Notes under the pieces: model-generated
What the model saw: the letters and a program-made list of their open reading frames with translations, nothing else
Databases searched by the model: none
Told to the model about the DNA's origin: nothing
Shown here: positions 1-22,464 of the stretch, piece by piece
Position numbering within the stretch: position 1 is the first letter of the stretch
How the letters are laid out: each line of letters starts with the position of its first letter
Source: an uncultured Gammaproteobacteria bacterium
GTDB lineage: Bacteria; Patescibacteriota; Microgenomatia; UBA10105; UBA927
Assembly: GCA_964629685.1 (NCBI GenBank)
Contig: CAZVTT010000001.1
Coordinates: 244,603 to 308,602 of the forward strand
Direction of reading: 5' to 3'
DNA: 64,000 bases
Made by a program: the position numbers and the translations under genes

Positions 1-277
1 GGCTCTGGAAATGCATGCCGTAATGATTACGTCGCGCCCTGCTCTGCTATATTGGACCATGGGAACGTTAGCAATAATGAAATTAGTACCGCTATGGCGG
101 AAAGGGGGTCTGGAAGTATATTTCACCGTTAATACCGGTCAGGATATTCATCTGCTCTGCCTTCCGGAAAACAGGGATGTGCTGGTAGCGAAGTTGCGGG
201 AATTGCCGTATGTTAAGGATATTATAGTTAATACGCCTTGCCCGGGAACAAAAGTAACGGAGACGCATCTGTTTTAA
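1..277 (+). CDS. 3' fragment of a GHMP-kinase-family gene, most likely diphosphomevalonate decarboxylase (gene continues upstream of the window)
   Basis: Frame is open from the window edge. The C-terminal translation ...YWTMGTL...EVYFTVNTGQDIHLLC... resembles the C-terminal block of mevalonate diphosphate decarboxylases (YFTMDAGPN-type). Stop TAA at 275-277. Confidence 0.4.
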   Translation, partial: ALEMHAVMITSRPALLYWTMGTLAIMKLVPLWRKGGLEVYFTVNTGQDIHLLCLPENRDVLVAKLRELPYVKDIIVNTPCPGTKVTETHLF

Positions 278-279
278 TT

Positions 280-978
280 ATGACTCAGGCACATATTCCA
301 AAGCATGTCGCGATTATTATGGATGGTAACCGCCGTTGGGCAAAAGAACACGGCCTGCCCACGTTGGAAGGTCATCGTCGGGTAGCCGATGATATTTTAG
401 ATCCCCTAATCGAACGGGCTTCGGAAATTGGTATAACGCACATGACATTTTGGGCCTGGTCAACAGAAAACTGGCAACGTGACGCACGGGAAGTGGCGGG
501 AATTATGCGCTTGTTCCAGCATATTGTGCAGCGGCGGTGGGATCGGTTGCATGAGCAGGGCGTGCGTATTAAAACCATCGGTGATATTTCTAAATTTGAT
601 ACGGGTATACGGACATCTTTAGAGCGGCTGATTGAGCAGACGAAAAATAATACTAAAATTACCGTTACGTTTGCGTTAAATTATGGCGGCCGGGATGAAA
701 TCATCCGAAGTATAAATAAATGGCAACAATCAGAGAAATCGCACGAAACGCTTTTAACGGCAGAAAAATTAGGTGAATTTTTAGATACTGCGGGATCACC
801 TGATCCCGATTTAATTATCCGTACCGGCGGGGAAATGCGATTAAGTGGTTTTTTGCTTTGGCAATCAGAATACAGCGAGCTCTATTTCCCTACGTGGTAT
901 ATGCCGGACTTTACGCCGGAACGTTTGGATGAAGCGGTAGAGGAGTATGCTAAGAGGCAGAGACGATTCGGGAAGTAA
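280..978 (+). CDS. uppS: undecaprenyl diphosphate synthase (isoprenyl transferase)
   Basis: Classic UppS motifs: HVAIIMDGNRRWA, FWAWSTENWQR, LNYGGRDE, RTGGEMRLSGFLLWQSEYSELYF. Start moved to the ATG at 280 (MTQAHIPKHV), which lies just after the stop of the upstream gene. Confidence 0.9.
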   Translation: MTQAHIPKHVAIIMDGNRRWAKEHGLPTLEGHRRVADDILDPLIERASEIGITHMTFWAWSTENWQRDAREVAGIMRLFQHIVQRRWDRLHEQGVRIKTIGDISKFDTGIRTSLERLIEQTKNNTKITVTFALNYGGRDEIIRSINKWQQSEKSHETLLTAEKLGEFLDTAGSPDPDLIIRTGGEMRLSGFLLWQSEYSELYFPTWYMPDFTPERLDEAVEEYAKRQRRFGK

Positions 979-984
979 GGAACG

Positions 985-1368
985 TTATCTTCCTCCGAAA
1001 ACATCCATAATTACCGTCAGATTGAATATTCTACCGATAAGCTGGACTATCCAGAACGCAATAAAAATTACCAGAAAACCGACAATTGCATAGGTAATTT
1101 GTTTCTTCCCGCTATCCAGCTTTTTGCTATCCCCAGCACTGGTAAGCAGTGAAAATCCACCCAGAATAAGCATAACCAGTAAGGCGATACCGGCAAAAGC
1201 GAATATAAACGGAATGGCAGCCCCTAAGACTGCTCCTAATGTTCTGCTGGCTTCAGTCCGGAATGCGAAATTTGAGGGTCCGGTAATGACAACGGTATTA
1301 ATAATGTTTGCGTCACTTTGTCCAGGAAGCGTCAGTGCTTGAGCCAGTTGTTGCATGGTATTATCCAA
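985..1368 (-). CDS. small pilin-like membrane protein (TrbC/VirB2-like two-helix topology)
   Basis: 127 aa with an N-terminal region followed by two long hydrophobic helices separated by a short polar loop (GDSKKLDSGKK). It is a paralog of the two downstream genes. Confidence 0.5.
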   Translation of the reverse strand: MDNTMQQLAQALTLPGQSDANIINTVVITGPSNFAFRTEASRTLGAVLGAAIPFIFAFAGIALLVMLILGGFSLLTSAGDSKKLDSGKKQITYAIVGFLVIFIAFWIVQLIGRIFNLTVIMDVFGGR

Positions 1369-1753
1369 AACCCGGTAAACCGAGAATATTTACCCCGATT
1401 AATCTCAATATAAAGACTGAGAAAATAATTAGCAATAGTCCCGAAATAGCAGACTGTACCATTTCTCTCCCTGTGTTTAACCGTTCCGGGTTGCCCGAAC
1501 TCATTTGAATTTGGAAGCCCCCCAGTAAAATCATTAGAAATGCTACGCCGCCACCAATTCCGAGGCCGATAGAAAGTATTTTGCTGATAAAAGCGACCGG
1601 GTCCACCGGGATACATCCTAATCCCGTTAATATACCGGCATTATTGTTACAGTACTGAACGCTGTCGTCTGCAGCCAAAACCGTAGCCGGGAACACCAAA
1701 AATGTGCCCCAAATTAGGCTCAGCTTCCCCAGATAGCGAGTTATATGACCCAC
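1361..1753 (-). CDS. small pilin-like membrane protein (TrbC/VirB2-like), paralog
   Basis: 130 aa with a signal peptide (LVFPATVLAADD) and a GLGCIP motif, then helix 1 (SIGLGIGGGVAFLMILLGGF), a polar loop (SSGNPERLNTGRE) and helix 2 (SAISGLLLIIFSVFILRLIGVNILGLPGF). Nearly identical in pattern to the C-terminus of 1864..2958. Confidence 0.55.
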   Translation of the reverse strand: MGHITRYLGKLSLIWGTFLVFPATVLAADDSVQYCNNNAGILTGLGCIPVDPVAFISKILSIGLGIGGGVAFLMILLGGFQIQMSSGNPERLNTGREMVQSAISGLLLIIFSVFILRLIGVNILGLPGFG

Positions 1754-1863
1754 AAGGCCGATAGTATATCATTTATCGGCGATGATTTCAAGGGAATGCC
1801 TAAAATCAAAGGAAAAAATGAACTAAACGGGGAGATGAAAATTCAGTAAATATAGACCTATAA

Positions 1864-2958
1864 TTATGAGAATCCCGGTAATCCGAGAATATTTACCCCT
1901 ATGAATCGGAGTATAAATACGGAAAATATTATTAACATTAATCCGGCAATGGCGGAAGTAATCAAATCTCGCCCCTCGCTCATCGCTTCAGGATTTCCCT
2001 GGCTCATGATTACTTTAAATCCGCCCAACAGAATGAGTAAAAACGCAATTCCGCCACCAAGGCCAATTCCGATAGTAAGTATTTGCCGGATAAATGCTGC
2101 CGGGTCCGTAGGGATACACCCTAAGCCTGTTTTAATACCGTTGTTTGCACATTCCACATAAGCGAAGCGTTGTCCGGTTTCTACGGGAGGTGGTGTGGTA
2201 CATGCGCTTTGAACACAACAGATCGTTCCCGCTGTTTCACAACGTAATCCATTGTTATACCCGCACACAGTCGTTCCGTTATTGCACAATGCAGCAGTTG
2301 TACAAGACATTCCAGCCCCAACGCAGGGTGCAATACTTCCTGTTTCTGCCGGACCGTCATCCCAACAAGACCCACCGCGGCATTCAGCGCTGGAAACGCC
2401 GCAAGTCCGTGCACAATCAGCGTTTCCGACACATCCCATGGCAGGATTTGGACCGCATACTTCTGCATGAGGAATACACTGTCCCGGTGATCCTATGTTG
2501 CAATTGAACCCCCCGCTGGGACAGACACAGCTTAACGTGCCGCTACAGCCGCTGCTTTGACCAACTATACAGGGGGCTCCGGGGGTACCCGTCGGATTGG
2601 TCGGAGTAGCCGGAGTGGTGGGAGGGGCAGTCGGTGGATTGGAAGGAACTGTAGGTGTATTTGTATTTACTGCCGTAGGGGTTGCCGGTGCTGCACAGAT
2701 GCTACCCGGATTGGGAGTGGCCACCAATGGATCCCGACAGGCATAGGAACCGTCTCCTTGAGGATAACAACAGCCGCCACCCCTGGTACAAGGCGAATCA
2801 GATTCAAAACCGGGGAGACTACAGTTTAATTGCGAACATCCGGCTCCGGAACACTGTGCAAATATAATGTTGGGGTGTTTTACCAGTGTGAAGAAGAGAA
2901 TGAAGCCGAAAAAAAATAACGAGTTATATATTATTCTTTTGGCGAATGCATATTTCAT
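1864..2958 (-). CDS. fusion protein: signal peptide + Cys-rich ectodomain (about 45 Cys) + Pro/Thr-rich linker + C-terminal VirB2/TrbC-like pilin domain
   Basis: 364 aa. The N-terminal TM/signal is followed by a Cys-dense region (CSGAGCSQLNCS..., CVCPSGGFNCNIGSPGQC...), a PT-rich stretch (TPTAVNTNTPTVPSNPPTAPPTTPATPTNPTGTPG) and a C-terminal 90 aa (GLGCIPTDPAAFIRQILTIGIGLGGGIAFLLILLGGF...SAIAGLMLIIFSVFILRFIGVNILGLPGFS) homologous to 1361..1753. Confidence 0.55.
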   Translation of the reverse strand: MKYAFAKRIIYNSLFFFGFILFFTLVKHPNIIFAQCSGAGCSQLNCSLPGFESDSPCTRGGGCCYPQGDGSYACRDPLVATPNPGSICAAPATPTAVNTNTPTVPSNPPTAPPTTPATPTNPTGTPGAPCIVGQSSGCSGTLSCVCPSGGFNCNIGSPGQCIPHAEVCGPNPAMGCVGNADCARTCGVSSAECRGGSCWDDGPAETGSIAPCVGAGMSCTTAALCNNGTTVCGYNNGLRCETAGTICCVQSACTTPPPVETGQRFAYVECANNGIKTGLGCIPTDPAAFIRQILTIGIGLGGGIAFLLILLGGFKVIMSQGNPEAMSEGRDLITSAIAGLMLIIFSVFILRFIGVNILGLPGFS

Positions 2959-3041
2959 ACAATATATTTACTTTAGCATGTTTAGAGTCGGAGATAAAAA
3001 CGAATCTGTAAGCACAAATCACGTAGTTTTGAAGTGATAGT

Positions 3042-4784
3042 GTGATACACTGGATATACTCCATGATCCGCTATTTAGTGACGATTATCACCCTCTGTCT
3101 GTTAACGCTTTTCAGCCTCCAGCGAGGAGTCTCTGCACAGGTGTGTGACCCCAGTTGTACGAATGCTATAGAGTGTCGTGACAAAATAGCCAAATGTCAG
3201 GAAGCCTGGAATCAGATGGAAACGGCAAAGCAGCCTCATGTAGACGCGTTAAAAAAAATGGAAGCGGATATCGTCGCATTTCAAAACAGAATTAAATCAA
3301 TCGAAAAAAATGTGGTGCAGAAAGCCGCGGAGATAAAAGAAGGTGAGAAAGAGTTAGCCGGCTTGTTGGGTGTAGCAGAGCGGCGGATCAGACAGTTCTA
3401 TATCCGTAGTTTTACCAATACACCGTTTGTAACATTCTTATCTACAGAAAATATAGGCATGATTTTGCGGACCATGGCCTATCAGAACGCAGTTACGGAG
3501 GAAGATAAACGATCTATAACCCAAACCGCTGTTTCCGTAAAAGGACTAGAGGAAAAAAAGAAAAGTTTAGAGTCGGAACGCTCATCACTGGCGTACCTGA
3601 AAGAAGAAACGGATAAACGGGCTGTATCCGTACGGAAATTAGTGAACGATGCGTCCGCATACCAGTCTAAACTTACGGGTATAATTGCCAGCCTTACTAC
3701 CCAGCAACAGGCAATTCTTTCCGCCAGATCAGGTACATTTACGACAAGCTTAGGAGAAGTCCCGCTTGCGGATGATCCGAACGCTTCCCCGAATTACAAT
3801 CCCGGATTCTCTCCGGCATTTGCCGGGTTCTCTTTCGGTGCGTATACCCATCGGAAGGGGATGAGTCAGTACGGTGCGAAAGGCAGGGCGGAGTCCGGTC
3901 AAAACGTAAATGATATTCTCAAGGCGTACTACGGTAAAACACCTGTCGGCAAAGATACCGGAGGATCAATCTCCGTTACCGGTATCGGCAGTATAAATTT
4001 TGAGGAGCATTATTTATACGGTATTGCGGAAATGCCTGCCAATTTTCCGAAAGAAGCACTCAAAGCCCAGGCTATTGCCGCCAGATCTTATGCCTATAGA
4101 TATAAACAACAGGGAACATCTATTTGTATTACGCAATCGTGTCAGGTGTTTTCACAATCGAAGGCAAATAATCCCCCTGCCGAATGGAAATCCGCGGTAC
4201 AGGAAACGCGTGGGCAGGTATTGGAAGATATTGTGGCCTACTATTCATCCACCACCGGTGGATACAGCACTACGTCCGGATGGGATACTAAATGCGGTAA
4301 TCAGGGATGTTGGACCGGAGATGCGTACGAAAAGATCGCCGGCAGTCCTTGGTTCTATAAAGGATGGTATACCAGCGAATATTATAATAATTCCGCTAAA
4401 TGCGGCCGAAGTCATCCTTGGTTAAATCAGGAAGAGTTTGCCGATATTCTAAACGCCTGGTTGGTGCGGAAACAGGGGAATGACGGGGATGCCAGCAGGG
4501 TACTGCCGGTCACTATCAGCAGTTGTGGAGTAGCCGGGGCATCGGGTAATCCCTATTCCATGAGTGAAATGCGGGACAGGGCAAATGCCTTGGGAGGGGC
4601 ATTTACCAGCGTATCCAGTGTAAAAGTGACATACAATACCGACGGATATACCGATAGTGTTATTTTCCAAACTAACAAAGGGGAAGCCAAAATTAGCGGC
4701 TCAGAATTTAGGGAAGCATTTAACTTACGTGCGCCGGGTTACATCTCTATTCGAAGCCCTTTGTTTAATTTAGAGAAAAAGTAG
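3042..4784 (+). CDS. SpoIID/LytB-domain protein with an N-terminal coiled-coil (EnvC-like) region
   Basis: N-terminal TM/signal, a long coiled-coil segment, then a SpoIID-type block (HRKGMSQYGAKGRAESGQNVNDILKAYYGKT) and a C-terminal domain. Confidence 0.65.
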   Translation: MIHWIYSMIRYLVTIITLCLLTLFSLQRGVSAQVCDPSCTNAIECRDKIAKCQEAWNQMETAKQPHVDALKKMEADIVAFQNRIKSIEKNVVQKAAEIKEGEKELAGLLGVAERRIRQFYIRSFTNTPFVTFLSTENIGMILRTMAYQNAVTEEDKRSITQTAVSVKGLEEKKKSLESERSSLAYLKEETDKRAVSVRKLVNDASAYQSKLTGIIASLTTQQQAILSARSGTFTTSLGEVPLADDPNASPNYNPGFSPAFAGFSFGAYTHRKGMSQYGAKGRAESGQNVNDILKAYYGKTPVGKDTGGSISVTGIGSINFEEHYLYGIAEMPANFPKEALKAQAIAARSYAYRYKQQGTSICITQSCQVFSQSKANNPPAEWKSAVQETRGQVLEDIVAYYSSTTGGYSTTSGWDTKCGNQGCWTGDAYEKIAGSPWFYKGWYTSEYYNNSAKCGRSHPWLNQEEFADILNAWLVRKQGNDGDASRVLPVTISSCGVAGASGNPYSMSEMRDRANALGGAFTSVSSVKVTYNTDGYTDSVIFQTNKGEAKISGSEFREAFNLRAPGYISIRSPLFNLEKK

Positions 4785-4845
4785 TATAATCAGTTAGTTT
4801 ATCGCGTAGTCACAATCCGGCCGGTCATCTGGCAAGAAAACTATT

Positions 4846-5505
4846 ATGCCAACACTCTACCAGTCTAACCAACCAGAAACACCGTCTCCGGCTCATCCCA
4901 ATACTGCAAAAGAGAAGCCGTTTGATCACGAACCTAAGTTTTTTTCCCGACGTGACACCATGCGCATGTTTACCCAACTAGCTGTTAATCCCCAGGGAGT
5001 TCGGTTTGAAACTCAGGAAGCTGAGGAAAAAATAATTCTCTTTATGCGGCAACATTTTATTGTGAATATTCCCTGGATCGTAATTACCGCAATCATGTTT
5101 GTAACGCCAAAACTTATATTTCCGTTTATAAGCCAAATTATTCCCTTTCCGGTTACTATTCCCTGGGGATATGCTATTACCGGTATTTTATTCTGGTATC
5201 TCGCAACCTTTGGGTTTGCTTTGTCTAGTTTTATCAGCTGGTATTTCAATATCTATATTGTTACCAATGAACGTGTTGTGGATATTGATTTTTTATATCT
5301 ACTGTACAAAGAATATTCGGAGGCGGAATTATCTAAAATACAGGACATGACATATAACGCAGGAGGAATACTGGCTACCGTTTTTAATTATGGAAACCTC
5401 TCCATAAAAACAGCGGGAGATAGTGCAAATTTAACGTTCGAGAAAATTCCTTATCCGCAAATGGTGGTGGAAACAATCAGGGAATTACTGGAGGATATAC
5501 CATGA
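4846..5505 (+). CDS. membrane protein with a bacterial PH (bPH_2/YdbT-like) domain
   Basis: Two TM helices followed by a pattern (YFNIYIVTNERVVDID...) typical of bPH_2 domains. Confidence 0.4.
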   Translation: MPTLYQSNQPETPSPAHPNTAKEKPFDHEPKFFSRRDTMRMFTQLAVNPQGVRFETQEAEEKIILFMRQHFIVNIPWIVITAIMFVTPKLIFPFISQIIPFPVTIPWGYAITGILFWYLATFGFALSSFISWYFNIYIVTNERVVDIDFLYLLYKEYSEAELSKIQDMTYNAGGILATVFNYGNLSIKTAGDSANLTFEKIPYPQMVVETIRELLEDIP

Positions 5506-5781: not shown

Positions 5782-7611
5782 ATGAAGATTCTTCCTGCTG
5801 TAGCTTCCGTGGTGACCCGTGCGTCTCCAACCGATTGGGCGCAAGTACTACAAACACCCCAGGCCTATGCGGTAATCCAGACTCTTGATTCTTCCGGACA
5901 GGCATTGCGGACCGGTGTTTCTCTCTTGGGTAGTCTTACCAGATTATTGGAAAAAATGCCGGAATCGGTTCAGGAATTAAAAACGGCGGTTCAGGAAATA
6001 GATGGTGAACATATAGTTTCTTTAACGGTGGTAGTTCCTCGAGGGCAGACACTGGATGTAATCCAGCGTGGTGAAGGAAGTGTCTATCTTAAGCGCGGAA
6101 AGCAACTGGCCTGTTTATTAAGCGCAGAGGGTGTCATATCTGGCGACGTCGCTGAAGGGGATGTGGTGATTTTAGCGGATAAAAATGCATCAGAATTACT
6201 TACGGACGCAGAAATTATTACCGCTGTTGATCACGAGCTTACTGCTGAGGAAATAGGAGAGCGGTTGGCAGTGGTTCTCAACGAAAAATCCGATAATGAA
6301 GGTGCTGCCATGCTGGTGTTTCAGATAAAAGACATAGTAGAGGAAGAACCGGAACAGGAGAGTGTTGCGGAAACGGAAGATACTGACACAATTCCCGAGG
6401 CTGACGATCCGGTTCCCTTGCCTAGTGCGATTTCTCACCCGCTTCCGCAACGCATCAGACATTTTTTGGTACGAATTAAACCTCGCATTGTTAAATTAAT
6501 CCCCGGTTCAAATAAAAAGTTAGCGGTTATTGTGTTTATTTTTGCCGGACTTTTTGGTATTAGTGTGTATTTGGGTATCAAAAAACAGGGAGAAAATGTT
6601 AGTTCAAAAAATGTGGCCGAGGCCGTATCACAGGCTCAGTCTTTATTGGATGAAGGTTTGGGTTTGCTTTCCGTCAATCGTGAGCAGAGTAGAATAAAGT
6701 TAGAAACGGCACAAGCATTACTGCAAAAGTATAAGGACAAACCGCCACTATCTAAAGAAGGAAAACGTGTCCCTCAACTTTACCAGCAAATATCCGATAA
6801 CCTGGAAGTAGCAAAACAAATCATCCGCGGCGAGCCGCAGCTTTTTTACGATCTGGACTTAATAAAAAAAGGCGCATATATCCACAAATTTGCTGTCTCA
6901 GACGATACCTTGGGGATGTTGGATGAAAATCAAAAAACTGTTTTTGTAGTCCGTATTCCCACTAAGGATGGTGATGTGCTGGCCGGTGGAGAGCCCTTTA
7001 CCGCAGCCACTGCGGTAGCTGCGTATGGAAAACAATTTTACGTGCTTACCGGTTCCGGAATTTACGAAATCAGCAGTAAGGGAAAAATTCCGGCCAAGCC
7101 GGTTATAGAGCATGACGAAACATGGGGGACAATCGGCGCTTTGGTGGCGTATGGTGGTAACCTGTACCTGTCCGATTTGCAGAAGAGCAGGATCTGGAAA
7201 TACGTAGCCACAGAAGTGGGATTTGATGTACGGCGGGAATATTTGAATCCCGATACGTTACCCAATTTATCACAGACTACGTCTATGGCCATCGACGGGC
7301 ATGTTTGGTTTGGTACAAAGAATGGCGAAATACTCCGATTTGCACAGGGAAAAGCGGACACATTTTCTCCAATTGGCATAGAACCGCCACTCGGTGAAGT
7401 GATTTCTGTTTATACTACTGACGATTTAGCTAATATTTATATCCTGGATGCTGCGGGGAAGCGGGTAGTTGTATTGCAAAAAGACGGACGGTATACTGCC
7501 CAATACGTTTGGAACGGGGAGATTTCTCCTGAACTGTTCCTGGTTTCCGAACAGTATAAAAAAATATTTTTGGTTGCGCAGGGAAAGTTGTATGCACTTG
7601 ATCTGCGCTAA
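5782..7611 (+). CDS. hypothetical single-pass membrane protein with a C-terminal beta-propeller-like repeat region
   Basis: 609 aa with an acidic segment, a TM helix (LAVIVFIFAGLFGISVYLGI) and C-terminal repeated motifs (YVLTGSGIYEI, LYLSDLQKSRIWKY, IYILDAAGKRVVVL, KLYALDL) reminiscent of NHL/propeller blades. Confidence 0.4.
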   Translation: MKILPAVASVVTRASPTDWAQVLQTPQAYAVIQTLDSSGQALRTGVSLLGSLTRLLEKMPESVQELKTAVQEIDGEHIVSLTVVVPRGQTLDVIQRGEGSVYLKRGKQLACLLSAEGVISGDVAEGDVVILADKNASELLTDAEIITAVDHELTAEEIGERLAVVLNEKSDNEGAAMLVFQIKDIVEEEPEQESVAETEDTDTIPEADDPVPLPSAISHPLPQRIRHFLVRIKPRIVKLIPGSNKKLAVIVFIFAGLFGISVYLGIKKQGENVSSKNVAEAVSQAQSLLDEGLGLLSVNREQSRIKLETAQALLQKYKDKPPLSKEGKRVPQLYQQISDNLEVAKQIIRGEPQLFYDLDLIKKGAYIHKFAVSDDTLGMLDENQKTVFVVRIPTKDGDVLAGGEPFTAATAVAAYGKQFYVLTGSGIYEISSKGKIPAKPVIEHDETWGTIGALVAYGGNLYLSDLQKSRIWKYVATEVGFDVRREYLNPDTLPNLSQTTSMAIDGHVWFGTKNGEILRFAQGKADTFSPIGIEPPLGEVISVYTTDDLANIYILDAAGKRVVVLQKDGRYTAQYVWNGEISPELFLVSEQYKKIFLVAQGKLYALDLR

Positions 7612-9943: not shown

Positions 9944-9981
9944 TAGTCGAAGCGGGTTAAAACTGGTATAATTGTATGCCT

Positions 9982-10067
9982 GGAGAGTTGGCTGAGTGGT
10001 CAAAAGCGAGGGTTTGCTAAACCCTTGAGCCGAAAGGCTCGCACAGGTTCGAATCCTGTACTCTCCG
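9982..10067 (+). tRNA. tRNA-Ser (anticodon GCT)
   Basis: Cloverleaf read by eye: acceptor GGAGAGT/ACTCTCC, anticodon stem AGGGT/ACCCT with loop TTGCTAA, long variable arm, T-arm CAGGTTCGAATCCTG, discriminator G. Confidence 0.8.
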
Positions 10068-10068
10068 C

Positions 10069-10167
10069 CCTTCGTCGCTACGCTCCTCAGGGTAAACTTC
10101 ATTGCAGGGGTTCGCCCTGATGATAGTGCGGTAAGTAGTAACCCTGAGGAACGGAGTGACGACGAAG
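10069..10167 (+). other. long imperfect hairpin occupying the entire spacer between two tRNA-Ser genes
   Basis: CCTTCGTCG...TCAGGGT at the 5' side pairs with ACCCTGA...CGACGAAGG at the 3' side (perfect 9-bp and 7-bp arms with an imperfect middle). Confidence 0.5.
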
Positions 10168-10254
10168 GGAGAGGTCGCATAGTGGACTAGTGCGCTTGTC
10201 TTGAAAACAAGTGTGGGCGCAAGCCTACCGCGAGTTCGAATCTCGCCCTCTCCG
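10168..10254 (+). tRNA. tRNA-Ser (anticodon TGA)
   Basis: Acceptor GGAGAGG/CCTCTCC, anticodon stem CTTGT/ACAAG with loop CTTGAAA, long variable arm, T-arm GCGAGTTCGAATCTCGC. Confidence 0.8.
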
Positions 10255-10353
10255 CCTTCGCTCGCCGGAGCGAGCTACGGCGGACGAAGTCCGCAAATAG
10301 ATCGCGAAGGAGAGATTCGGTCGCCAGAGCTTTAGCGACGGCGAGCTTCGCAT

Positions 10354-10653
10354 ATGACCGATGGTCTCGATGAAATTAAAGGGCGACCTTCGGCGGACGC
10401 AGTCCGCTTTTATTATGTCTACATTTTAAAATGTGGTGATGGTTTGACTTACACTGGATGCACGGATAACTTGAAAGAAAGAATTGATCGCCATCAAAAA
10501 GGACAAGTCCCGGCAACGAAAAATCGTTTACCCGTGTCACTTACTTCCTATTTTGCATTTTCCGATAAATATACCGCTTTCAATTTCGAACACTATCTTA
10601 AATCCGGCTCGGGGAGAGCATTCCTAAAGAAGCACCAAATAATTGACCGTTAA
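10354..10653 (+). CDS. GIY-YIG nuclease-domain protein (small stand-alone GIY-YIG)
   Basis: FYYVYILKCGDGLTYTGCTDNLKERIDRHQ is a canonical GIY-YIG N-terminal motif. The true start is uncertain because the first 17 codons overlap a repeat hairpin. Confidence 0.65.
   Translation: MTDGLDEIKGRPSADAVRFYYVYILKCGDGLTYTGCTDNLKERIDRHQKGQVPATKNRLPVSLTSYFAFSDKYTAFNFEHYLKSGSGRAFLKKHQIIDR
10393..10411 (+). terminator. GC-rich hairpin GCGGAC-GCA-GTCCGC + TTTT (possible terminator for the tRNA pair); second copy of a 17-nt repeat
   Basis: Perfect 6-bp stem with a 3-nt loop followed by TTTT. A near-identical hairpin without the T-tract lies at 10280..10294. It overlaps the 5' part of the predicted GIY-YIG ORF. 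Confidence 0.3.
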
Positions 10654-10707
10654 GGTCTTTAGTTGTCATGTGGGTTATAATTTAGTACAGAACAAGAATT
10701 ATTACAT

Positions 10708-11076
10708 ATGATTCAAATAACTTGGTATGAGTTAGCGTCTTATTTAACTAACATCGTTTTAGCATTTTTAAGTATTTATCAATTTTTAGCCTCAAAAAAA
10801 GAAGAGGAAAATACAAAGTCAAAAATTAGAATGTTACAGAACCAAGCAGAGGGGATAAAAAATGCTTTACTTCAAATAGGTCAAAATTCAAACGCCTTCA
10901 GCAGCAAGGATGATATTGCTGCCGCGGTTACAGCTGTTTCACAATCAGCTGTAACATTAGATCAAGCAATGGTTGAAGAAAGATTCTATTCTGAAACAGA
11001 AATAAAACAAAAGAGAATGGAAATGGAAAAACAACAGAAGAAATTGTTTTCGATGCTTAAAACTAGTCAATCGTAA
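10708..11076 (+). CDS. hypothetical protein with an N-terminal TM helix and a coiled-coil
   Basis: 122 aa. TM helix (LTNIVLAFLSIYQFLA) followed by a Lys/Glu/Gln-rich predicted coiled-coil. AT-rich codon usage. Confidence 0.4.
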   Translation: MIQITWYELASYLTNIVLAFLSIYQFLASKKEEENTKSKIRMLQNQAEGIKNALLQIGQNSNAFSSKDDIAAAVTAVSQSAVTLDQAMVEERFYSETEIKQKRMEMEKQQKKLFSMLKTSQS

Positions 11077-11084
11077 GGAGGAGA

Positions 11085-12038
11085 ATGACATTTATTGCAA
11101 GTGTAATTGCAAAAAAAGGTGTTGCGATTATTGCTGATTCATTGGTGACGATGTCTAGGCCTGTAATGGAGGCAGATGACTTTAGGCATTATGTTCAAAG
11201 TAAAACAAGTCCAGACGGAAAAGTAACTCAGTTGAACCCAGATGACTTGTTGAAACTCTTTCATAAGAAGCCATCACACACAAAGGACTATGAGGAAAAA
11301 TTGTTTCAGTATGATAAATATACAGCAATAACGGTTGCGGGAAGGGCGGTTATTAACAATCGACGAATTGGCGAGGTTATTCATGAAATTTCTGACAAAC
11401 TTCGTAAAGCCAGGATGTTGAATAAGCCGATTGCTAATAAAATAATTGACTTTTGTTCGGAGCTTGAAGTAATTGCAAAATCGCATTTAGCTAAGTATAA
11501 ATTTATTGGACTAACAACATTTATTGTTACTCATTACGATAAACGGGCTGAAAAGACAAGTATTTTTAGAGTTAATATTAATAATGCGAGTGAGGCGAAC
11601 TTACAAAATCCTAGCTTTAAGTTAGTTGAGTTTTCAGAGAGTTTTGCTATTGAAAATGTAGTTTGCGATGGCCAAAATGGAATCAGTGAAAGAATTCTTT
11701 TGGGAGGAATAGATGTTATTTTAGCTACTGCCGAGAAACTTATTGACCGTATTGATACTGACTACGGGTTAAAACTAAAGCCTACTTATAAAAAACAACT
11801 TACAGATGAGATATTCCAGCAGTTTCAAAGTGAATTAAAAATTGCAAAACTAAAAGGTCTGAGTTTACAGCAAGCTGTTGATTTAGCATATTTATTGATG
11901 AAGATTGAGATAGATTTTCAAAAATATACTGAGGATATGCCGACTGTAGGGGGAGTAATCAAAATAGCAGTTATTGACTCCGAAGGAGTGAGATTTATTG
12001 CTGGAAAAGAAATTATTGATCCCCGTGAGCACTTATAG
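11085..12038 (+). CDS. proteasome-beta/HslV/Anbu-like N-terminal-nucleophile hydrolase-fold protein (divergent; candidate Thr1)
   Basis: Strong RBS (AAGGAGG) 9 nt upstream. The N-terminus MTFIASVIAKKGVAIIADSLVT resembles HslV [21 protein letters not shown]. A later block KLFQYDKYTAITVAGRA resembles the HslV Lys33 region KVRRLYNDKVIAGFAGG. The C-terminal strands (VGGVIKIAVIDSEGVRFI) look proteasome-like. It carries insertions relative to HslV. Confidence 0.45.
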   Translation: MTFIASVIAKKGVAIIADSLVTMSRPVMEADDFRHYVQSKTSPDGKVTQLNPDDLLKLFHKKPSHTKDYEEKLFQYDKYTAITVAGRAVINNRRIGEVIHEISDKLRKARMLNKPIANKIIDFCSELEVIAKSHLAKYKFIGLTTFIVTHYDKRAEKTSIFRVNINNASEANLQNPSFKLVEFSESFAIENVVCDGQNGISERILLGGIDVILATAEKLIDRIDTDYGLKLKPTYKKQLTDEIFQQFQSELKIAKLKGLSLQQAVDLAYLLMKIEIDFQKYTEDMPTVGGVIKIAVIDSEGVRFIAGKEIIDPREHL

Positions 12039-12039
12039 T

Positions 12040-12216
12040 ATGAAAAAAACACAAAAAATATCAAAAACAGACACAGAGGCAATTTCCGAAATTACACAAA
12101 GAAAAGCCGAGATTTTAAGTAAACAGAGAGATTCAATGTTGCAGGAGCTTAAAGACGCAATGAAAGACAAAAAAATAATAATTAAGGGAAATATATCAAA
12201 CTTACTTGGATATTAG
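12040..12216 (+). CDS. small charged hypothetical protein (58-72 aa)
   Basis: ATG sits 2 nt after the stop of the upstream gene. The ORF track extends it to 11998 in the same frame. Lys/Glu-rich and probably helical. Confidence 0.3.
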   Translation: MKKTQKISKTDTEAISEITQRKAEILSKQRDSMLQELKDAMKDKKIIIKGNISNLLGY

Positions 12217-12290
12217 CTCCCATTATTTACTCTATTATCTCACCATAAGTGCTCCAATTATATCCCAAGTGGTCAGCTAATTGATAGAAT

Positions 12291-12686
12291 ATGATTATGA
12301 AAATTAACCAAATTGATGCTGAAAATTTCCCCCTAGTTGAAGTTGTTTCCAATGAAGTGCTTGTTAAAAATACTCAAGATGTTCTTGATCTTTTAGGGGA
12401 AGTTGGTTTCTCAAATATAATTCTGTACGATCATAATTTTGAATCAGACTTTTTTGATCTAAGTACGAACAAATTGGGAGAAATTCTCCAAAAGTTTACA
12501 AACTACCAAGTTAAACTAGCGATTATTGGTGATTTTGAAAAGTATCCAAGTAGAGTCTTAAAAAAATATATTCACGAAACGAATAGGGTAGGAGATTTTT
12601 TATTTGTTACGAATATGGAAGCCGTTAAAGATAAATGGATAAGTAGTAATAAACGTTCTAATTCTGTTCCAGGCTGCCCGCAATAA
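12291..12686 (+). CDS. DUF4180-domain protein
   Basis: The pattern DVLDLLGEVGFSNIILYDHNFESDFFDLSTNKLGEILQKFTNYQVKLAIIGDFEKYPSRVLKKYIHETN matches my recollection of DUF4180 (...DFFDLSTGIAGEILQKF.NY..KLAIVGDF..Y.SKSL.DFI.ESN). Confidence 0.55.
   Translation: MIMKINQIDAENFPLVEVVSNEVLVKNTQDVLDLLGEVGFSNIILYDHNFESDFFDLSTNKLGEILQKFTNYQVKLAIIGDFEKYPSRVLKKYIHETNRVGDFLFVTNMEAVKDKWISSNKRSNSVPGCPQ
12658..12684 (+). repeat. 27-bp direct repeat, copy A (CTAATTCTGTTCCAGGCTGCCCGCAAT)
   Basis: Seen directly. It pairs with copy B at 13967..13995 (2 differences). It overlaps the last codons (NSVPGCPQ*) of the DUF4180 gene. Confidence 0.8.
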
Positions 12687-12733
12687 ATAGATGCACCAGT
12701 GGGTATGCTGCTGCTACTACGAGTTTTAAATAC

Positions 12734-13969
12734 ATGCGTATTTTTTTTCGTTCTTCTTTTAGAATTAGTTTAGTTTTATTCAGTATAGTATTAAGTCTTC
12801 TGGTAGTCGAAAAAATATTAGAAGTACGTGGCTATACGTACAAACCACTATTAGTTGCTCAGAATATTCGACCGGAAACCGCTGGGTATTTTTACGACCC
12901 AGAACTGATTTATACGGCTAAGTATCAGATAAATAATCCTTTACCCTCTGAAGTTGGTTTAAAAAATCAAATTCAGCTTAGACCCGACAGTATCAGTAAC
13001 GCCTCTGCGTCCGGTAATACGTTTACCGTTGTTACGCTTGGGGATTCGTTTACCTATGGTCACAATCTCGCGGATAGTGATACGTACCCGTCTCAGCTAG
13101 AGACAGTCCTTACGGAAAATGGATATAACGTGAATGTATTCAACGCCGGTGTGTCCGGGTACGGTATAGATCAAGAATACGTGTTTTTAAAACGAATTTT
13201 GGCTTCATACAAACCGAATCTGGTGATATTGAATCTGAATGAGAACGATATCTCTGATTCAAACGAAAATTGTCTCTTCAAGAAGGAGTTATCGGGGGAT
13301 TTTGTAAGAGTAACCGGTATTACCAGTAATACGTATATACTGTACCAGGTGTTAGTACACGTTCCGGAAAGTATAAAAAAATCGCGTGTATTAAATCTTT
13401 TCCTAGCAGGATTAAGCCTGGAAGGTCCACACAACTTTGTTTGCTCCCAAAAATACACGTCCGAACTAGAAAGATTGATGCTCGATAAAATTGAAGGCTT
13501 AATTACCAAGATCGCTCATGAGCTTCCTTCCGGAACGAATCTGATGTTAACGTTCGTCCCTATGCAGGATTATTTTAGGTATACCACAAAAGATACGTAT
13601 CGGCTTTCTAACCGTAAAAAAATAATCAAGCAACTGAGTAATTTTTCAATTTTAGATGTGAACAAGAAAATTGCGGGCAACCTGTATCCTGAAATTTATG
13701 TTTTGCGTGAAGATACGGATGTTAGGATAGCCGGTGCGAATACCGTCAGTGGTTTTGTTGATATGCCGTATAGTTCGGTAGATATACCATATCCCGATAC
13801 TCAATTATTCTTAAATGCATTAACGGAGCCTGAATCTCCTTACGGATCCAGACACCCCAGTAGACTTGGTAATTTTCTCTTCGCTCGCAGCGTTGCAAAA
13901 GAAATTATTGAAAAGTATCTTGGTGAACAACACCTTGAATCATATAATAACTCGATAAAAGTTCCGTAA
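12734..13969 (+). CDS. SGNH/GDSL-family hydrolase with an N-terminal membrane anchor
   Basis: N-terminal TM, GDS block (VVTLGDSFTYGH) and a Gly block (FNAGVSGYGIDQ). Confidence 0.6.
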   Translation: MRIFFRSSFRISLVLFSIVLSLLVVEKILEVRGYTYKPLLVAQNIRPETAGYFYDPELIYTAKYQINNPLPSEVGLKNQIQLRPDSISNASASGNTFTVVTLGDSFTYGHNLADSDTYPSQLETVLTENGYNVNVFNAGVSGYGIDQEYVFLKRILASYKPNLVILNLNENDISDSNENCLFKKELSGDFVRVTGITSNTYILYQVLVHVPESIKKSRVLNLFLAGLSLEGPHNFVCSQKYTSELERLMLDKIEGLITKIAHELPSGTNLMLTFVPMQDYFRYTTKDTYRLSNRKKIIKQLSNFSILDVNKKIAGNLYPEIYVLREDTDVRIAGANTVSGFVDMPYSSVDIPYPDTQLFLNALTEPESPYGSRHPSRLGNFLFARSVAKEIIEKYLGEQHLESYNNSIKVP

Positions 13970-13995
13970 TTCTGTCCCAGGCTGCCCGCCAATGT
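13967..13995 (+). repeat. 27-bp direct repeat, copy B (GTAATTCTGTCCCAGGCTGCCCGCCAATG)
   Basis: Seen directly, immediately after the stop of the SGNH hydrolase gene. In the frame of copy A it would encode NSVPGCPPM*. Confidence 0.8.
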
Positions 13996-14029
13996 AAGGG
14001 TTGGAATAGTGTGAATAATATCTGAGAAC

Positions 14030-15187
14030 CTAATTTTCTTTATTAAATGTATCCGGATTATTAATGGTAACGGTTTTTTGTATTTCAGGGTGACTTCTAA
14101 GGTACTGACTAATTACTTCAGATATAGTTTGAGCAACTAAGGCATGTCCAGATTCATTGTAGTGCTTATCTTTTGGGTTAAAGTATGAAGTATATTTATC
14201 TGGATCAGCTTTTAACATTGATTCACCGATATCTATAAAAATAAGATTGTCATTTGCCGCTAGTTGATTAAGCATTTTCTTGCGTTTATCATATTTTTCC
14301 AGATAGATTTCTTTTTCCCCTGGATCGTATTGTGTAGGAAGTAAAACAATAATAGGGAATGCGCCTCTTTTCCTTGTTACACCAACTAAATCGTTAAGTA
14401 TTGCGGCAATGACGTTCTCAGAATCCTGATTTGTGGCACCTGTTTCGGTATGCAAATGCAGATACTGCATGATGACACTTAATGCATGTCGACCTGTTAG
14501 GTATATATTGAGATACTCCAATGCATTCGGATTAAGCGCCAGTACTGTAAGCCACTTATTGGGTGGTGGAACAGGATTATTCGTATTAGCTAGTACATTA
14601 TTTTTTAACTTGAAAAATGGTTTACCATATCCTCTAAATGTACGTAAGGAAACTCGATCAAAATCATCTAAAATAAATGCCATGATGTGGAATGTATGTG
14701 ATATTGTCTCTGCGTCCCGTAGGTACCACAAATAATTTTGATCGATACCGTAACCTCCCTGCGCCATGTTATATGGCTGTAAGCTATTACTACTTAAAAG
14801 AGAACACCAATTTTTATAGTCATCCACACCGTATCCAAAAGTAAAAGAGTCACCCGAGCAAATAGTTGTGAATGCAGGATTGCTGGTATGCGTAGGAGTA
14901 ATTCGGAATCGATGTGAATTCGTAGTTAGATTTTTTCCCGGCCCATACAAATTTAACAATGATAGATTTTGTTTATTTATCCATCCTAGCAGTGGATCGT
15001 ACTCAGTATGTGTGTCTTTAATAACTCTTGAGGAGGTATTAACCACACGTTGATAAAAATGATAAAAAGAAAGAATTCCTTCAATACTTGCAAACAACAG
15101 ACATGTAAGAACAATTTGAAGAGCAAAAGTGACGAAATATTTCTTAATAGGGGAGATAATCTTATATAACTTCGGTAGCAAGGCCAT
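14030..15187 (-). CDS. SGNH/GDSL-family hydrolase with an N-terminal membrane anchor (paralog, convergent with 12734..13969)
   Basis: TM anchor, GDS block (ICSGDSFTFGYG), Gly block (AQGGYGIDQ) and a C-terminal DKHYNESGH block (Asp/His catalytic block of SGNH hydrolases). Confidence 0.6.
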   Translation of the reverse strand: MALLPKLYKIISPIKKYFVTFALQIVLTCLLFASIEGILSFYHFYQRVVNTSSRVIKDTHTEYDPLLGWINKQNLSLLNLYGPGKNLTTNSHRFRITPTHTSNPAFTTICSGDSFTFGYGVDDYKNWCSLLSSNSLQPYNMAQGGYGIDQNYLWYLRDAETISHTFHIMAFILDDFDRVSLRTFRGYGKPFFKLKNNVLANTNNPVPPPNKWLTVLALNPNALEYLNIYLTGRHALSVIMQYLHLHTETGATNQDSENVIAAILNDLVGVTRKRGAFPIIVLLPTQYDPGEKEIYLEKYDKRKKMLNQLAANDNLIFIDIGESMLKADPDKYTSYFNPKDKHYNESGHALVAQTISEVISQYLRSHPEIQKTVTINNPDTFNKEN

Positions 15188-15527
15188 ATTATAGTTTTAT
15201 CCTGTCGGCATCATCTACAGTCCTATAGTTCTAATTGGGTAGTTGATAGAAATATGATTTCCATCATATCAGAATGGCGAATTCTTATAAAAGATTAAGC
15301 AGAAAGTTTACTTCGTATGCATCTTGAAACACGGTGATTCTTGCTAGAATATCCTCACCACGGAAATCAACACAGCTGATTTTTCGGGAAAATTTGTTTT
15401 TATTCATTTGGGAAAGAAGCAATAGAAATATTCCGTCACTTTTACAACTGCAAGTTAACGTGTAATCCCATCAGGCAATCCGTTATGAAGAAGTTGTTTG
15501 AGATAATAGTAAGCTAAGTTTCCGTGA

Positions 15528-15731
15528 TTATAGTTGGAAGAATTTCAGCAATTCATACACAACAAACACCGGCCATATAAAGGCTTTAAACAAGCCAACG
15601 ATTACTAGCCACACTGTCGGTGCGTGCTGCAAAAAATAAATTGCTGCGCCAACCAAGCCGAGTCCGTATACCGCATTCCCTCCACCGCATGTGCTGTTGT
15701 GACGACACTGACATTCATGTTCTTTTGCCAT
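15528..15731 (-). CDS. small Cys-containing membrane protein, hypothetical
   Basis: 67 aa with an HECQCRH...CGGG segment and then two hydrophobic helices. Confidence 0.3.
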   Translation of the reverse strand: MAKEHECQCRHNSTCGGGNAVYGLGLVGAAIYFLQHAPTVWLVIVGLFKAFIWPVFVVYELLKFFQL

Positions 15732-15835
15732 AGGTAACCTCCTTTTCCACAGTACTCCGTTTCGGTAACGGCAACAAGCGAACTACATTACGCTAGCATA
15801 ACAGCAGAAGCAAGGGCAGAGGATATAGTGCCGTC

Positions 15836-16195
15836 CTATTTTTTGTTCGCCGCTACATCTATTTCCTTACGCCGGAGAGTAAGTAATTTTTTCAGGATTG
15901 CCACCGGGATCGGATTATCTGAAGTAAATCTGATTGTTCCCTTAGACAATTCGAAATTACCCAATTTTTTTTGTAGGGCTACGATAACATTTGGGCTAAA
16001 AGGGTAAATGCTGAGATGGCGTTTAGTGGCCGTGAAGCCCAGTAAAGGCCGTTTTTTGTACTTAAACGTCGGTATACCGTAACTTAACGATTCTTCCGTA
16101 CCGGGTACGATTTTTTTTATATTTTCGCAAAGTCGTACCAACGCTTTTTGGTTCGGCCCGGTAACGTTCTGCAAATATTCGTTCATTACAGACAT
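15836..16195 (-). CDS. DUF1801 (YdhG-like) domain protein
   Basis: Pattern ...SLSYGIPTFKYKKRPLLGFTATKRHLSIYPFS... is typical of the DUF1801 family. Confidence 0.5.
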   Translation of the reverse strand: MSVMNEYLQNVTGPNQKALVRLCENIKKIVPGTEESLSYGIPTFKYKKRPLLGFTATKRHLSIYPFSPNVIVALQKKLGNFELSKGTIRFTSDNPIPVAILKKLLTLRRKEIDVAANKK

Positions 16196-16245
16196 ACCCC
16201 TATTATGGCATAATAGGCGGGAATTCTGATAATGTTTTTACTAGT

Positions 16246-16650
16246 ATGGACAATACATTTATAGATAAATTGGCGTTTATCGAAATCAAGAACAGAACGT
16301 TGCTGGTTACCTTAAGTAAAGGTAAGGATACCTGGTATATCCCCGGAGGGAAGAGGGAACCCGGCGAAACCGATGCACAGGCGCTTATTCGCGAAGTTAA
16401 AGAAGAATTAACCGTCAACATTATCCCGGAAACGATTACTGCCTGTGGGGTTTTTACTGCGCAGGCGCATGGGAAGCCGGAGGGTACGATGGTGCGTATG
16501 ACATGTTATACCGCGCAATACACGGGAGAACTTGTACCAAGTTCGGAAATAGATAAAATGGATTATTTTAGGTATAAACAAAAAATATTGTGCTCTGCCG
16601 TGGACAATCTGATTTTTGATGATCTGAAACGCAAAGCGTTGGTTGATTAA
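16246..16650 (+). CDS. NUDIX hydrolase
   Basis: Nudix box GGKREPGETDAQALIREVKEELT. Confidence 0.7.
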   Translation: MDNTFIDKLAFIEIKNRTLLVTLSKGKDTWYIPGGKREPGETDAQALIREVKEELTVNIIPETITACGVFTAQAHGKPEGTMVRMTCYTAQYTGELVPSSEIDKMDYFRYKQKILCSAVDNLIFDDLKRKALVD

Positions 16651-17185
16651 ATACTCCCCCATGAAAATACGGTTTCGTTTAGCTGTAATAGAAGATTTGG
16701 AAGCATATACTGCTTTACTTCAACAGGTATACCAGGATGCATATACCAATAAGGATTTAGGGTTAACACCAGAGTGTTTTTCCCGGGAAGTTTTCATGAC
16801 TCCCAGTACGCAGGAATATCTTCTGTCAAATCTGCACCATAATGAAACTCAACAAACATGGCTTGCGATCGGCGATAATACACTTATGGGTGCCGTTACC
16901 ATTGTGGATCGGGGGAGTGAATGTGAATTAAGAGGTTTTTATGTCGCTGTTAATTTACAGGGTCAAGGTATAGGAAAGCAGCTGTTTATGAAGGCAAAAC
17001 AGTTTTGTGCCGGTAAACCTATCATTCTAGATATCTATGCGCACAATCTGAAAACCATCTCGTTGTATCAGAAATGGGGATTCGTGATAGATGAAACTAA
17101 ACCGGCGTTTTTCCGCCATTGGCCGGAATGGCCGGAAGGCTTGCAGGCGAAGTGTATATACATGAGATTGCCGGCCGCAGGGTAG
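16643..17185 (+). CDS. GNAT family N-acetyltransferase
   Basis: Acetyl-CoA binding motif VAVNLQGQGIGKQLF. Overlaps the upstream gene by 8 nt. Confidence 0.6.
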   Translation: MIKYSPMKIRFRLAVIEDLEAYTALLQQVYQDAYTNKDLGLTPECFSREVFMTPSTQEYLLSNLHHNETQQTWLAIGDNTLMGAVTIVDRGSECELRGFYVAVNLQGQGIGKQLFMKAKQFCAGKPIILDIYAHNLKTISLYQKWGFVIDETKPAFFRHWPEWPEGLQAKCIYMRLPAAG

Positions 17186-17203
17186 TCCCGATATGATGAA
17201 TAT

Positions 17204-17554
17204 ATGAAAATACAGATAAAAAGGATTTTCGACTTGTGCTCCTGGGGTATTCCGTTCGTACTGTATGTTTTAAGTTGGTACTTTCAGTATTACAATCGTT
17301 ATCCGGTTAGTAATGCGATCTGGAAGGAATATTGGCACCAATTCTATTACTTTTATCTCCTGGCAGGAGGTGTAAATCTGATACTCTATTTTGAATTAGG
17401 ACAAAAAAACTTAAAGGGATTTTTAGCATTTTTTAAAGCTCCGGTAGTGGGATTTCTGCTGACAATGTTCTCTTACGCCTTGGCAGCAATATCACGGGAT
17501 ATTTTAAACGTCATGTTTCTTATACTTTTCCGTAAGCCGTTGTTCATGTATTAA
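17204..17554 (+). CDS. hypothetical membrane protein
   Basis: 116 aa with three or four hydrophobic helices. Confidence 0.35.
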   Translation: MKIQIKRIFDLCSWGIPFVLYVLSWYFQYYNRYPVSNAIWKEYWHQFYYFYLLAGGVNLILYFELGQKNLKGFLAFFKAPVVGFLLTMFSYALAAISRDILNVMFLILFRKPLFMY

Positions 17555-17570
17555 TTTCCGTGCTATTTTT

Positions 17571-18107: not shown

Positions 18108-18150
18108 ATGTTTTCTTGTAGATGCAATCTCAGCATGGTATAAATAGGTT

Positions 18151-18666: not shown

Positions 18667-18747
18667 CGCGTTTCGCCGATCCGTAGTACAATATTCCCAT
18701 AGTATTTGTACCTGGTTCAGCGGGATGGTGCATATATTTGTGGATAC

Positions 18748-18819: not shown

Positions 18820-18857
18820 CTAATATTTTCAATTAGGAACAGGGTTCAGACTCGTTT

Positions 18858-22463: not shown

Positions 22464-22464
22464 T

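Follow-up and report, generated by a model that had tools for sequence, protein, structure and literature searches.

Three probable type IV secretion pilin genes at the outer edge of a split, origin-proximal neighbourhood in a Gottesmanbacteria genome

Patescibacteria, also termed the Candidate Phyla Radiation (CPR), are ultrasmall microorganisms dependent on host bacteria. Their type IV secretion system (T4SS) is accompanied by unusual pilin arrays, and no other T4SS is known to be required for the growth of its carrier. In 2025, Quinonero-Coronel et al. ran PF18895 together with further pilin models against 3,035 Patescibacteria genomes and reported 441 arrays of 2-11 pilin genes in 383 assemblies, with the greatest abundance in Microgenomatia and Saccharimonadia (PMC12102498). 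In the same survey, pilin genes were located near virB4 in only 1135 of 1948 assemblies, the T4SS components of Microgenomatia were scattered, and dnaA/dnaN were frequently present near virB4 (PMC12102498). Transposon sequencing identified a predicted pilin series inside the T4SS cluster of Southlakia epibionticum (ML1) as essential to its growth as an epibiont (Wang et al. 2023, PMC10633639). Herein, a tandem array of three genes is described, which lies at the left end of a 64,000-nucleotide stretch of DNA (the window) from contig CAZVTT010000001.1 of assembly GCA_964629685.1 (positions 244,603 to 308,602). These genes probably encode VirB2-like pilin subunits of a Patescibacteria T4SS in a member of the Gottesmanbacteria, and they would constitute the outermost part of an origin-proximal neighbourhood that is split by housekeeping operons.

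Three consecutive open reading frames (ORFs), all on the minus strand (985-1368, 1361-1753 and 1864-2958), give products of 123, 130 and 364 aa according to independent gene calls on metagenome contigs identical to the window. The 130-aa protein shares 72% identity with the last 95 residues of the 364-aa protein (E=1e-36), and the third protein, which is 123 or 127 aa long depending on the start codon, shares 38% identity with the 130-aa protein over 48 aa (E=8e-11). Judged from the sequences, this similarity is real and far beyond chance, and it points to paralogy. A lineage hidden Markov model representing the C-terminal 100 residues of the homologues, which is matched by the 130-aa protein with E=1.6e-42, detected exactly these three modules in the window and no more. 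A previous, sequence-only reading of this DNA had described three minus-strand genes with a common C-terminal module, and it was right about the ORFs and their paralogy, whereas the motifs GLGCIP and GLPGF, which it had ascribed to all three, are restricted to the 130-aa and 364-aa proteins, the 123/127-aa protein having neither of them. A recent duplication of the 130-aa and 364-aa modules was considered and rejected, given a DNA identity of only 70% and the existence of separate orthologs of both in the nearest available relative (locus L079).

All three proteins match the Pfam family PF18895 (T4SS_pilin), in agreement with the T4SS-pilin assignment of the sequence-only reading. The scores are 31.0 bits for the 123/127-aa protein, 25.9 for the 130-aa protein and 27.8 for the 364-aa protein (residues 288-353), to be compared with a gathering score of 26.6 bits, which means that the 130-aa protein stays 0.7 bit under it and the other two pass. 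Even so, the 130-aa protein shares 72% identity with the module of the 364-aa protein, which passes, and PF18895 is the precomputed annotation of its own homologues. The homologues number in the hundreds, nearly all of them being PF18895 members, and the named records among them derive from Gottesman-, Woese- and Beckwithbacteria (Microgenomatia, Patescibacteria). Besides PF18895, no noteworthy Pfam match was obtained for the three proteins, the first of which weakly resembles DUF996 (E=7.5e-4). Since these scores lie near the threshold (25.9-31 against 26.6 bits) and the first protein weakly matches other membrane families, such as DUF996, the products could be imagined as unrelated small hydrophobic proteins, of holin-like, immunity or DUF996 type, which match PF18895 merely through the composition of their transmembrane helices. 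This explanation is regarded as highly improbable, because motifs such as GGF..TS.G[DN]..KL..G are kept outside the hydrophobic cores across hundreds of homologues, the precomputed PF18895 annotation is consistent among them, and the linkage to T4SS genes is conserved.

According to hydropathy, two hydrophobic helices are present in each of the three proteins, and a signal peptide is found only in the 130-aa and 364-aa members, which are referred to as type A. The 130-aa protein is composed of a signal peptide (about residues 1-27, ending ...VLA↓ADD), a short beta-hairpin bearing the conserved pair Cys35/Cys47 and the GLGCIP motif, a helix at residues 52-84, the loop SSGNPE and a helix at residues 89-123 that ends with GLPGF. 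An AlphaFold2 model based on a 149-sequence alignment (mean predicted local distance difference test score, pLDDT, of 76.5, and >90 across the hairpin) places a signal-peptide helix, the small beta-hairpin and the two helices in this order, the latter being joined by a four-residue loop; the model and hydropathy agree on the two-helix topology proposed from the sequence. In the model of the 364-aa protein, the module likewise reaches a pLDDT of about 90 (hairpin residues 286-352). The 123/127-aa protein, referred to as type B, is a divergent subtype, in which a polar N-terminal tail of about 40 aa is followed by hydrophobic helix 1, the basic loop SAGDSKKLDSGKKQ and hydrophobic helix 2; its loop is lysine-rich, unlike that of type A, and it has no signal peptide. 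The type B ortholog adjoins uppS in every relative examined.

The array is situated 1 kb from the left edge of the window, and in the 61 kb on its right no T4SS component was detected by Pfam searches of all ORFs of at least 195 aa, by a relaxed rescan of the unannotated ORFs or by tblastn with the T4SS proteins of a relative. The left flank of this genome was read through a Logan contig (L011), which is 100% identical to window positions 1-3292 and reaches 9.5 kb further to the left. In the leftward direction, this contig carries uppS and a mevalonate-pathway operon, a Yip1 gene, a 76-aa gene, an extracytoplasmic function (ECF) sigma factor gene and, 8.3 kb to the left, a second pilin array, inside which it ends (L011 120-1245 and 2-118, corresponding to about -9.5 to -8.3 kb of the window). 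This second array contains three complete genes of the T4SS_pilin type (104, 125 and 138 aa) and the start of a fourth, and it is divergent from the ECF sigma gene; six pilin genes occupy the same position in relatives. None of the best 120 homologues listed was a second-array pilin of this genome, and an exact 36-nt pattern taken from the left end of L011 had no match in JGI metagenomes. Proteins identical to those of the array are also encoded on an NCBI contig of 953,690 bp, which does not belong to the GTDB representatives that were scanned with a T4CP query.

The remaining part of the neighbourhood can be followed in relatives. In the complete Gottesmanbacteria chromosome OY970230.1 (loci L010 and L056), the order from dnaA to uppS matches and ends with a short pilin. 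Leftward of its ECF sigma gene lie six pilin genes, genes for a 481-aa and a 1287-aa protein, nadE, nadD, the gene of a 725-aa VirD4-like ATPase or type IV coupling protein (T4CP; domains TrwB_AAD_bind, T4SS-DNA_transf and TraG-D_C) and that of a PrgI/VirB3-domain protein, beyond which a 219-aa protein, VirB4 (P-loop_TraG, AAA_10), a C39-peptidase-domain protein, dnaN and dnaA are encoded. The uppS-side array of this chromosome is about 18-20 kb away from the T4CP gene, 22-24 kb from virB4 and 30 kb from dnaA. When 59 GTDB species-representative loci were collected with a T4CP query, VirB4 was encountered in 47, PrgI in 48 and dnaA in 36 of them; a pilin array lay no more than 10 kb from the T4CP gene in 38 of the 59, and all six genes were present in 32 of those 38. 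Many of the metagenome-assembled genomes behind these loci (L014-L072), which display the Gottesmanbacteria synteny and encode a T4CP with 65-84% identity to a Gottesmanbacteria protein, bear the title 'uncultured Gammaproteobacteria bacterium', while a few are titled 'Pseudomonadales' and one 'Clostridia'; these titles are probably mislabelled. It was also observed that Pfam-less proteins of 481-485 aa and 1038-1287 aa adjoin the six-pilin arrays (L056 13506-18833, L009 11710-16308), and that three further Pfam-less proteins (871, 565 and 921 aa) stand by the pilin array of locus L080 (13167-20390). Such proteins beside the arrays are candidates for missing VirB6-like channel or adhesin components.

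The array is placed between uppS and a SpoIID-like gene, as recognized in the sequence-only reading, and the same arrangement recurs in every relative examined, where the uppS-side array comprises a long headed and a short pilin gene (2-4 genes in all). In the distant locus L080 (SmpB 44% identical), the mevalonate block is missing, and the long pilin gene is followed by seven short pilin-like genes, the three large proteins and PrgI, with SpoIID-DUF5657 on its other side. Because the long pilin is contiguous there with a multi-pilin array and PrgI, the simplest reading is that one T4SS locus has been split in Gottesmanbacteria. Throughout the window the GC skew stays positive, consistent with a location immediately on one side of the replication origin. 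As the order is conserved in 38-48 related Gottesmanbacteria species, VirB4 should lie about 22 kb to the left in this genome too, as may be inferred from its relatives.

These observations bear directly on the idea that the array is a stand-alone surface filament or cell-contact system independent of any T4SS, as was originally supposed. The 61 kb on the right without a T4SS gene and the 8-kb housekeeping block between the two pilin arrays would suit it, and yet macro-synteny with VirB4, PrgI and T4CP extends across the 38-48 species, the long pilin of L080 is contiguous with the multi-pilin array and PrgI, and the array has no alternative assembly ATPase linked to it, which leaves very little probability for this idea. 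The original statement that no VirB4, VirB6 or ATPase gene exists within 60 kb was accurate for the 61 kb to the right and probably breaks down on the left, where the second array occurs at 8.3 kb and, in relatives, the T4CP, PrgI and VirB4 genes occur at 18-24 kb; the apparent isolation from a secretion locus is an effect of the window edge in a conserved, origin-proximal T4SS neighbourhood. The locus leaves the published picture unchanged, in which Microgenomatia arrays are found near dnaA and often away from virB4, and it provides a clear case of a T4SS gene set split by housekeeping operons, for which reason scans limited to a window misread such arrays as orphans.

Within the 364-aa protein, a large Cys-rich head ectodomain lies between the signal peptide and the conserved pilin module (Table 1). 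Every one of the best 120 homologues listed for this protein is 201-529 aa long, with a conserved C-terminal module and a Cys-rich N-domain (median 11 Cys), and a signal-peptide-like hydrophobic stretch opens most of the 40 homologue N-termini inspected. Similarity in the head could be detected by BLAST in only 1 of 119 orthologs, and 1.84 billion representative proteins, all scanned with HMMER, yielded a single relative, so that the head is effectively an orphan domain. Compared with L079, identity amounts to 35% in the head, where large indels occur, and to 86% in the module; the corresponding amino acid identities are 96% for SpoIID, 82% for uppS, and 88% and 82% for the 130-aa and 123-aa-type short pilins. 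This relative possesses an extra headed pilin (294 aa) that is absent from the window genome, and the copies of the headed gene at the uppS-side site vary from 1 to 2. The divergence between window positions 1-5000 and L079 is mosaic, with SpoIID at 96% and the pilin head at 35%, which points to recombination and gene turnover at the pilin site. As far as was found, the 2025 survey mentions neither N-terminal extensions nor signal peptides of pilins (PMC12102498), and a literature search retrieved no paper combining Gottesmanbacteria and pilin.

At the level of the Patescibacteria pilin family, the reading of the three proteins as paralogous VirB2-like pilins of a T4SS finds support in the PF18895 matches, the predicted hairpin, the hydrophobic segments and the linkage to VirB4 in relatives. 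As proposed here, the neighbourhood would read, leftward from the array, uppS and the mevalonate operon, Yip1, the 76-aa gene, the ECF sigma factor, the second array, the 481-aa and a very large protein, nadE/nadD, the VirD4-like ATPase, PrgI/VirB3, the 219-aa protein, VirB4, dnaN and dnaA. The pilins would enter the cytoplasmic membrane as N-out/C-out helical hairpins, type A through a Sec signal peptide and type B without one, and a VirB4-driven machine would pull them from the membrane and polymerise them into a pilus or conduit touching the host bacterium. The headed 364-aa pilin would display its fast-evolving, disulfide-rich ectodomain on the outside or at the tip, where it might serve as an adhesin or a determinant of host specificity, and the divergently encoded SpoIID-like enzyme may open the peptidoglycan locally, a role that is played by VirB1 elsewhere. 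If the heads are indeed host-recognition domains, they would offer a handle on the host range of uncultured CPR bacteria.

Several points weigh against this proposal. No T4SS pilus has yet been seen in any Patescibacteria according to a 2025 review (PMC12857230), and VirB4, T4CP and PrgI were seen in relatives and not in this genome itself, the left flank of which was read over 9.5 kb, as far as the second array. An hhalign comparison of 98 CPR pilins with 7 plasmid VirB2/TrbC proteins gave a probability of 1.5% (E=0.035) with the helices in register, the template alignment being shallow (7 alphaproteobacterial sequences); a profile search of the PDB returned no pilin and only spurious matches (a designed repeat protein, PsaA); and Foldseek against the PDB with the 130-aa model gave nothing significant, a helical hairpin being a simple fold. 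In contrast with the loop that faces the lumen in the T-pilus, that of type A has no net basic character. Lastly, the head of the 364-aa protein is modelled at low confidence, with pLDDT <50 over most of residues 30-177, and the function given to it is a guess. The search against TrbC/VirB2 that the sequence-only reading had envisaged came out negative as well, there being no match of the three proteins to PF04956 at E<=1 and only 13.7 bits for NCBIfam TrbC PRK13871 (cutoff 211). Its view that the topology matches TrbC/VirB2 is supported for the predicted two-helix hairpin; direct homology could not be demonstrated.

The main rival explanation is one in which the proteins belong to the T4SS as membrane-resident two-helix parts of the translocon or as assembly factors, rather than as filament subunits, and the head belongs to a membrane-anchored surface protein. 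T4SSs of the Gram-positive-type mating-pair-formation class MPF-FATA, which is the class closest to Patescibacteria VirB4, are normally pilus-free (PMC12102498), a pilus has never been observed (PMC12857230), homology to classical VirB2 is not demonstrable, and the headed protein resembles a surface protein anchored by its C-terminus. On the other side, divergent arrays of 6-8 paralogs are characteristic of subunits that polymerise or of pilins with antigenic variation, and not of fixed channel parts, and such proteins are designated as pilins by Pfam as well as by structure-based annotation in S. epibionticum (PMC10633639). The rival is accordingly judged unlikely, though it deserves more attention than any other alternative, and filament-forming pilin subunits are the preferred reading.

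On the right of the array, the gene of a SpoIID-like protein of a peptidoglycan lytic-transglycosylase family adjoins the long pilin gene, an adjacency that was also found in L003, L005, L006, L007, L008, L079 and the distant L080 (SmpB 44% identical). By analogy with VirB1, this enzyme may be linked to the pilus or channel through local opening of the wall; most pilin-bearing Patescibacteria genomes are devoid of VirB1, for which other glycosidases may substitute (PMC12102498). The order of SpoIID, the 219-aa membrane protein, DUF5657 and the 609-aa membrane protein is kept in nearly all relatives examined, including L080, with L008 having no separately called 219-aa and DUF5657 genes. This cluster, whose link to the pilins is one of synteny, may serve the T4SS as a cell-wall or assembly module. 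A more far-reaching proposal is that a class of headed T4SS pilins has gone unrecognised, of which the 364-aa protein would be a representative and in which the hairpin is fused to an orphan, hypervariable, disulfide-rich ectodomain that is displayed on the pilus or caps it and sets host attachment, with SpoIID, the bPH protein, DUF5657 and the 609-aa protein acting as a wall-breaching and assembly module; this is put forward tentatively, as a possibility with the odds against it. In any case, the locus adds a pilin subfamily with large, Cys-rich, extremely fast-evolving heads and a deeply conserved SpoIID/DUF5657 cluster.

Table 1. Positions of the putative pilin genes, their parts and the adjoining genes in the window
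Feature	Position	Strand	Remarks
Short 'type B' pilin	985..1356	-	123 aa from ATG 1356; 127 aa if TTG 1368 used
'Headless type A' pilin	1361..1753	-	130 aa, GTG start
Promoter-like element	1763..1791	-	TTGAAA, 17 nt, TATACT, extended -10 TG; consensus scan 10/12 matches
'Headed' type A pilin	1864..2958	-	364 aa
Conserved pilin module of the 364-aa protein	aa 269-364, nt 1867-2154	-	
Head ectodomain of the 364-aa protein	aa 35-262, nt 2173-2856	-	28 Cys; Pro/Thr linker at about aa 90-128
Signal peptide of the 364-aa protein	aa 1-34, nt 2857-2958	-	
SpoIID-like protein, peptidoglycan lytic-transglycosylase family	3063..4784	+	PF08486, E=1.8e-19; divergent from headed pilin
219-aa membrane protein	4846-5505	+	bPH_2, E=0.0013, below cutoff
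DUF5657 protein, 76 aa	5502-5732	+	DUF5657, E=2.4e-15
609-aa membrane protein	5782-7611	+	no Pfam match

As for the expression of the array, co-transcription had been suggested from the small overlap at 1361-1368; this 8-bp overlap depends on the choice of the TTG start at 1368, and the gene callers use the ATG at 1356, leaving a 4-nt gap. Furthermore, a promoter-like element (Table 1) is located in the 110-nt gap upstream of the 130-aa gene, with its -10 hexamer ending 9 nt before the GTG, and it could be a separate, nearly leaderless transcription start; a single transcript is therefore not assured. Extended -10-like elements of the form TGnTAnAcT were noticed within about 10 nt upstream of pilin starts at window positions 1763-1791 and 2959-2975 and in L003, L005-L008 and L011, preceding long pilin genes, the 130-aa gene and the first gene of the second array, a pattern that suggests leaderless or nearly leaderless pilin transcripts.

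Some other features of this genome were recorded in passing. An isoprenoid/carotenoid-like set occupies window positions 26568-35589, consisting of two phytoene-desaturase-like amine oxidases, TetR, a phytoene/squalene synthase, a UbiA prenyltransferase, a family 2 glycosyltransferase (GT2) and a photolyase, and a complete-looking mevalonate operon with uppS is located to the left of the window (L011 2761-10514); both are unexpected for a Patescibacteria genome of about 0.95 Mb. A 431-aa ORF at 37779-39074 partially matches the large subunit of NiFe-hydrogenase in two stretches (PF00374, E=4.5e-23). A sortase gene followed by an unannotated 215-aa ORF, and two proteins with Lamin-tail domains (LTD), were found at 21804-24888 and 61602-62399, and they may represent other cell-surface systems of this genome. 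Seven tRNA genes, including four different tRNA-Ser and two tRNA-Arg, are scattered over 9981-25149.

With regard to other kinds of pilins, three candidates were discarded. Type IV pilus pilins were rejected for want of the G↓F/M-T-L-I-E motif of class III signal peptides, the proteins having a Sec-type signal peptide or none and two C-terminal hydrophobic helices, and sortase-assembled pilins were rejected because LPXTG is missing from the C-termini (...NILGLPGFS, ...NILGLPGFG and ...MDVFGGR), despite the sortase gene at 21804-22463. The pilin-like protein Mbov_0395 of a Mycoplasma integrative and conjugative element (NF045849), a small two-helix protein of a monoderm T4SS of MPF-FATA type, is the best NCBIfam match of the 123/127-aa protein (E=1.4e-6), whose 27.9 bits fall short of the cutoff of 40 and place it outside the family; for the remaining two, the outcome was 11.8 bits and no match.

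The likeness to TrbC/VirB2/TraA of the T-pilus and F-pilus comprises the small size, the signal peptide of type A, two helices with a short polar loop, a predicted N-out/C-out orientation and, as judged from relatives, an origin in genomes having a VirB4 machine. The differences are the lack of detectable sequence or profile similarity, the monoderm organism, the multi-paralog arrays and the gene setting: the array does not stand in an operon of the virB1-virB2-virB3-virB4 type, no VirB3 or VirB4 being encoded in the window, whereas the plasmid virB2 genes compared are flanked by virB3 and, except in L075, by a lytic transglycosylase gene. A large N-terminal ectodomain, present in one member here, is unknown in classical VirB2. 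The archaeal CedA1/TedC proteins and the conjugation pilus of Aeropyrum pernix (8dfu, PMC9905601) resemble the proteins in being VirB2-like hairpins of a chromosomal, non-plasmid T4SS-like machine, and 8dfu was the Foldseek match with the highest probability (0.84; rmsd 2.7 A over 70 columns, target TM-score 0.64); with E=2 and 10% sequence identity, this match is not significant and homology is not claimed. The tandemly amplified VirB2 paralogs of Bartonella and Anaplasma T4SSs also exist as multiple divergent copies, which are thought to vary the exposed surface (an analogy drawn in PMC12102498); they are classical diderm VirB2 of pathogens of eukaryotic hosts, in contrast with the present locus, where the variation resides in the fused head and in the copy number (2-4 genes).

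The closest systems are the Patescibacteria arrays themselves. Shared with them are PF18895, tandem divergent paralogs and, as judged from relatives, a chromosomal T4SS close to the origin (dnaA/dnaN) that includes VirB4, PrgI/VirB3 and a VirD4-like ATPase, as well as the lack of a relaxase nearby, the prevalence in Microgenomatia and a pilin gene often located apart from virB4. Compared with the arrays in PMC12102498, the present genome has two arrays separated by a block of ECF sigma, Yip1, mevalonate and uppS genes, a module identity of 72% as against at most 54% within the published arrays, a 230-aa orphan Cys-rich head, and a consistent pairing with the SpoIID-DUF5657 cluster. The locus is a further example of the published kind, and its only possibly new points are the hypervariable head domain and the conserved SpoIID-DUF5657 neighbours.

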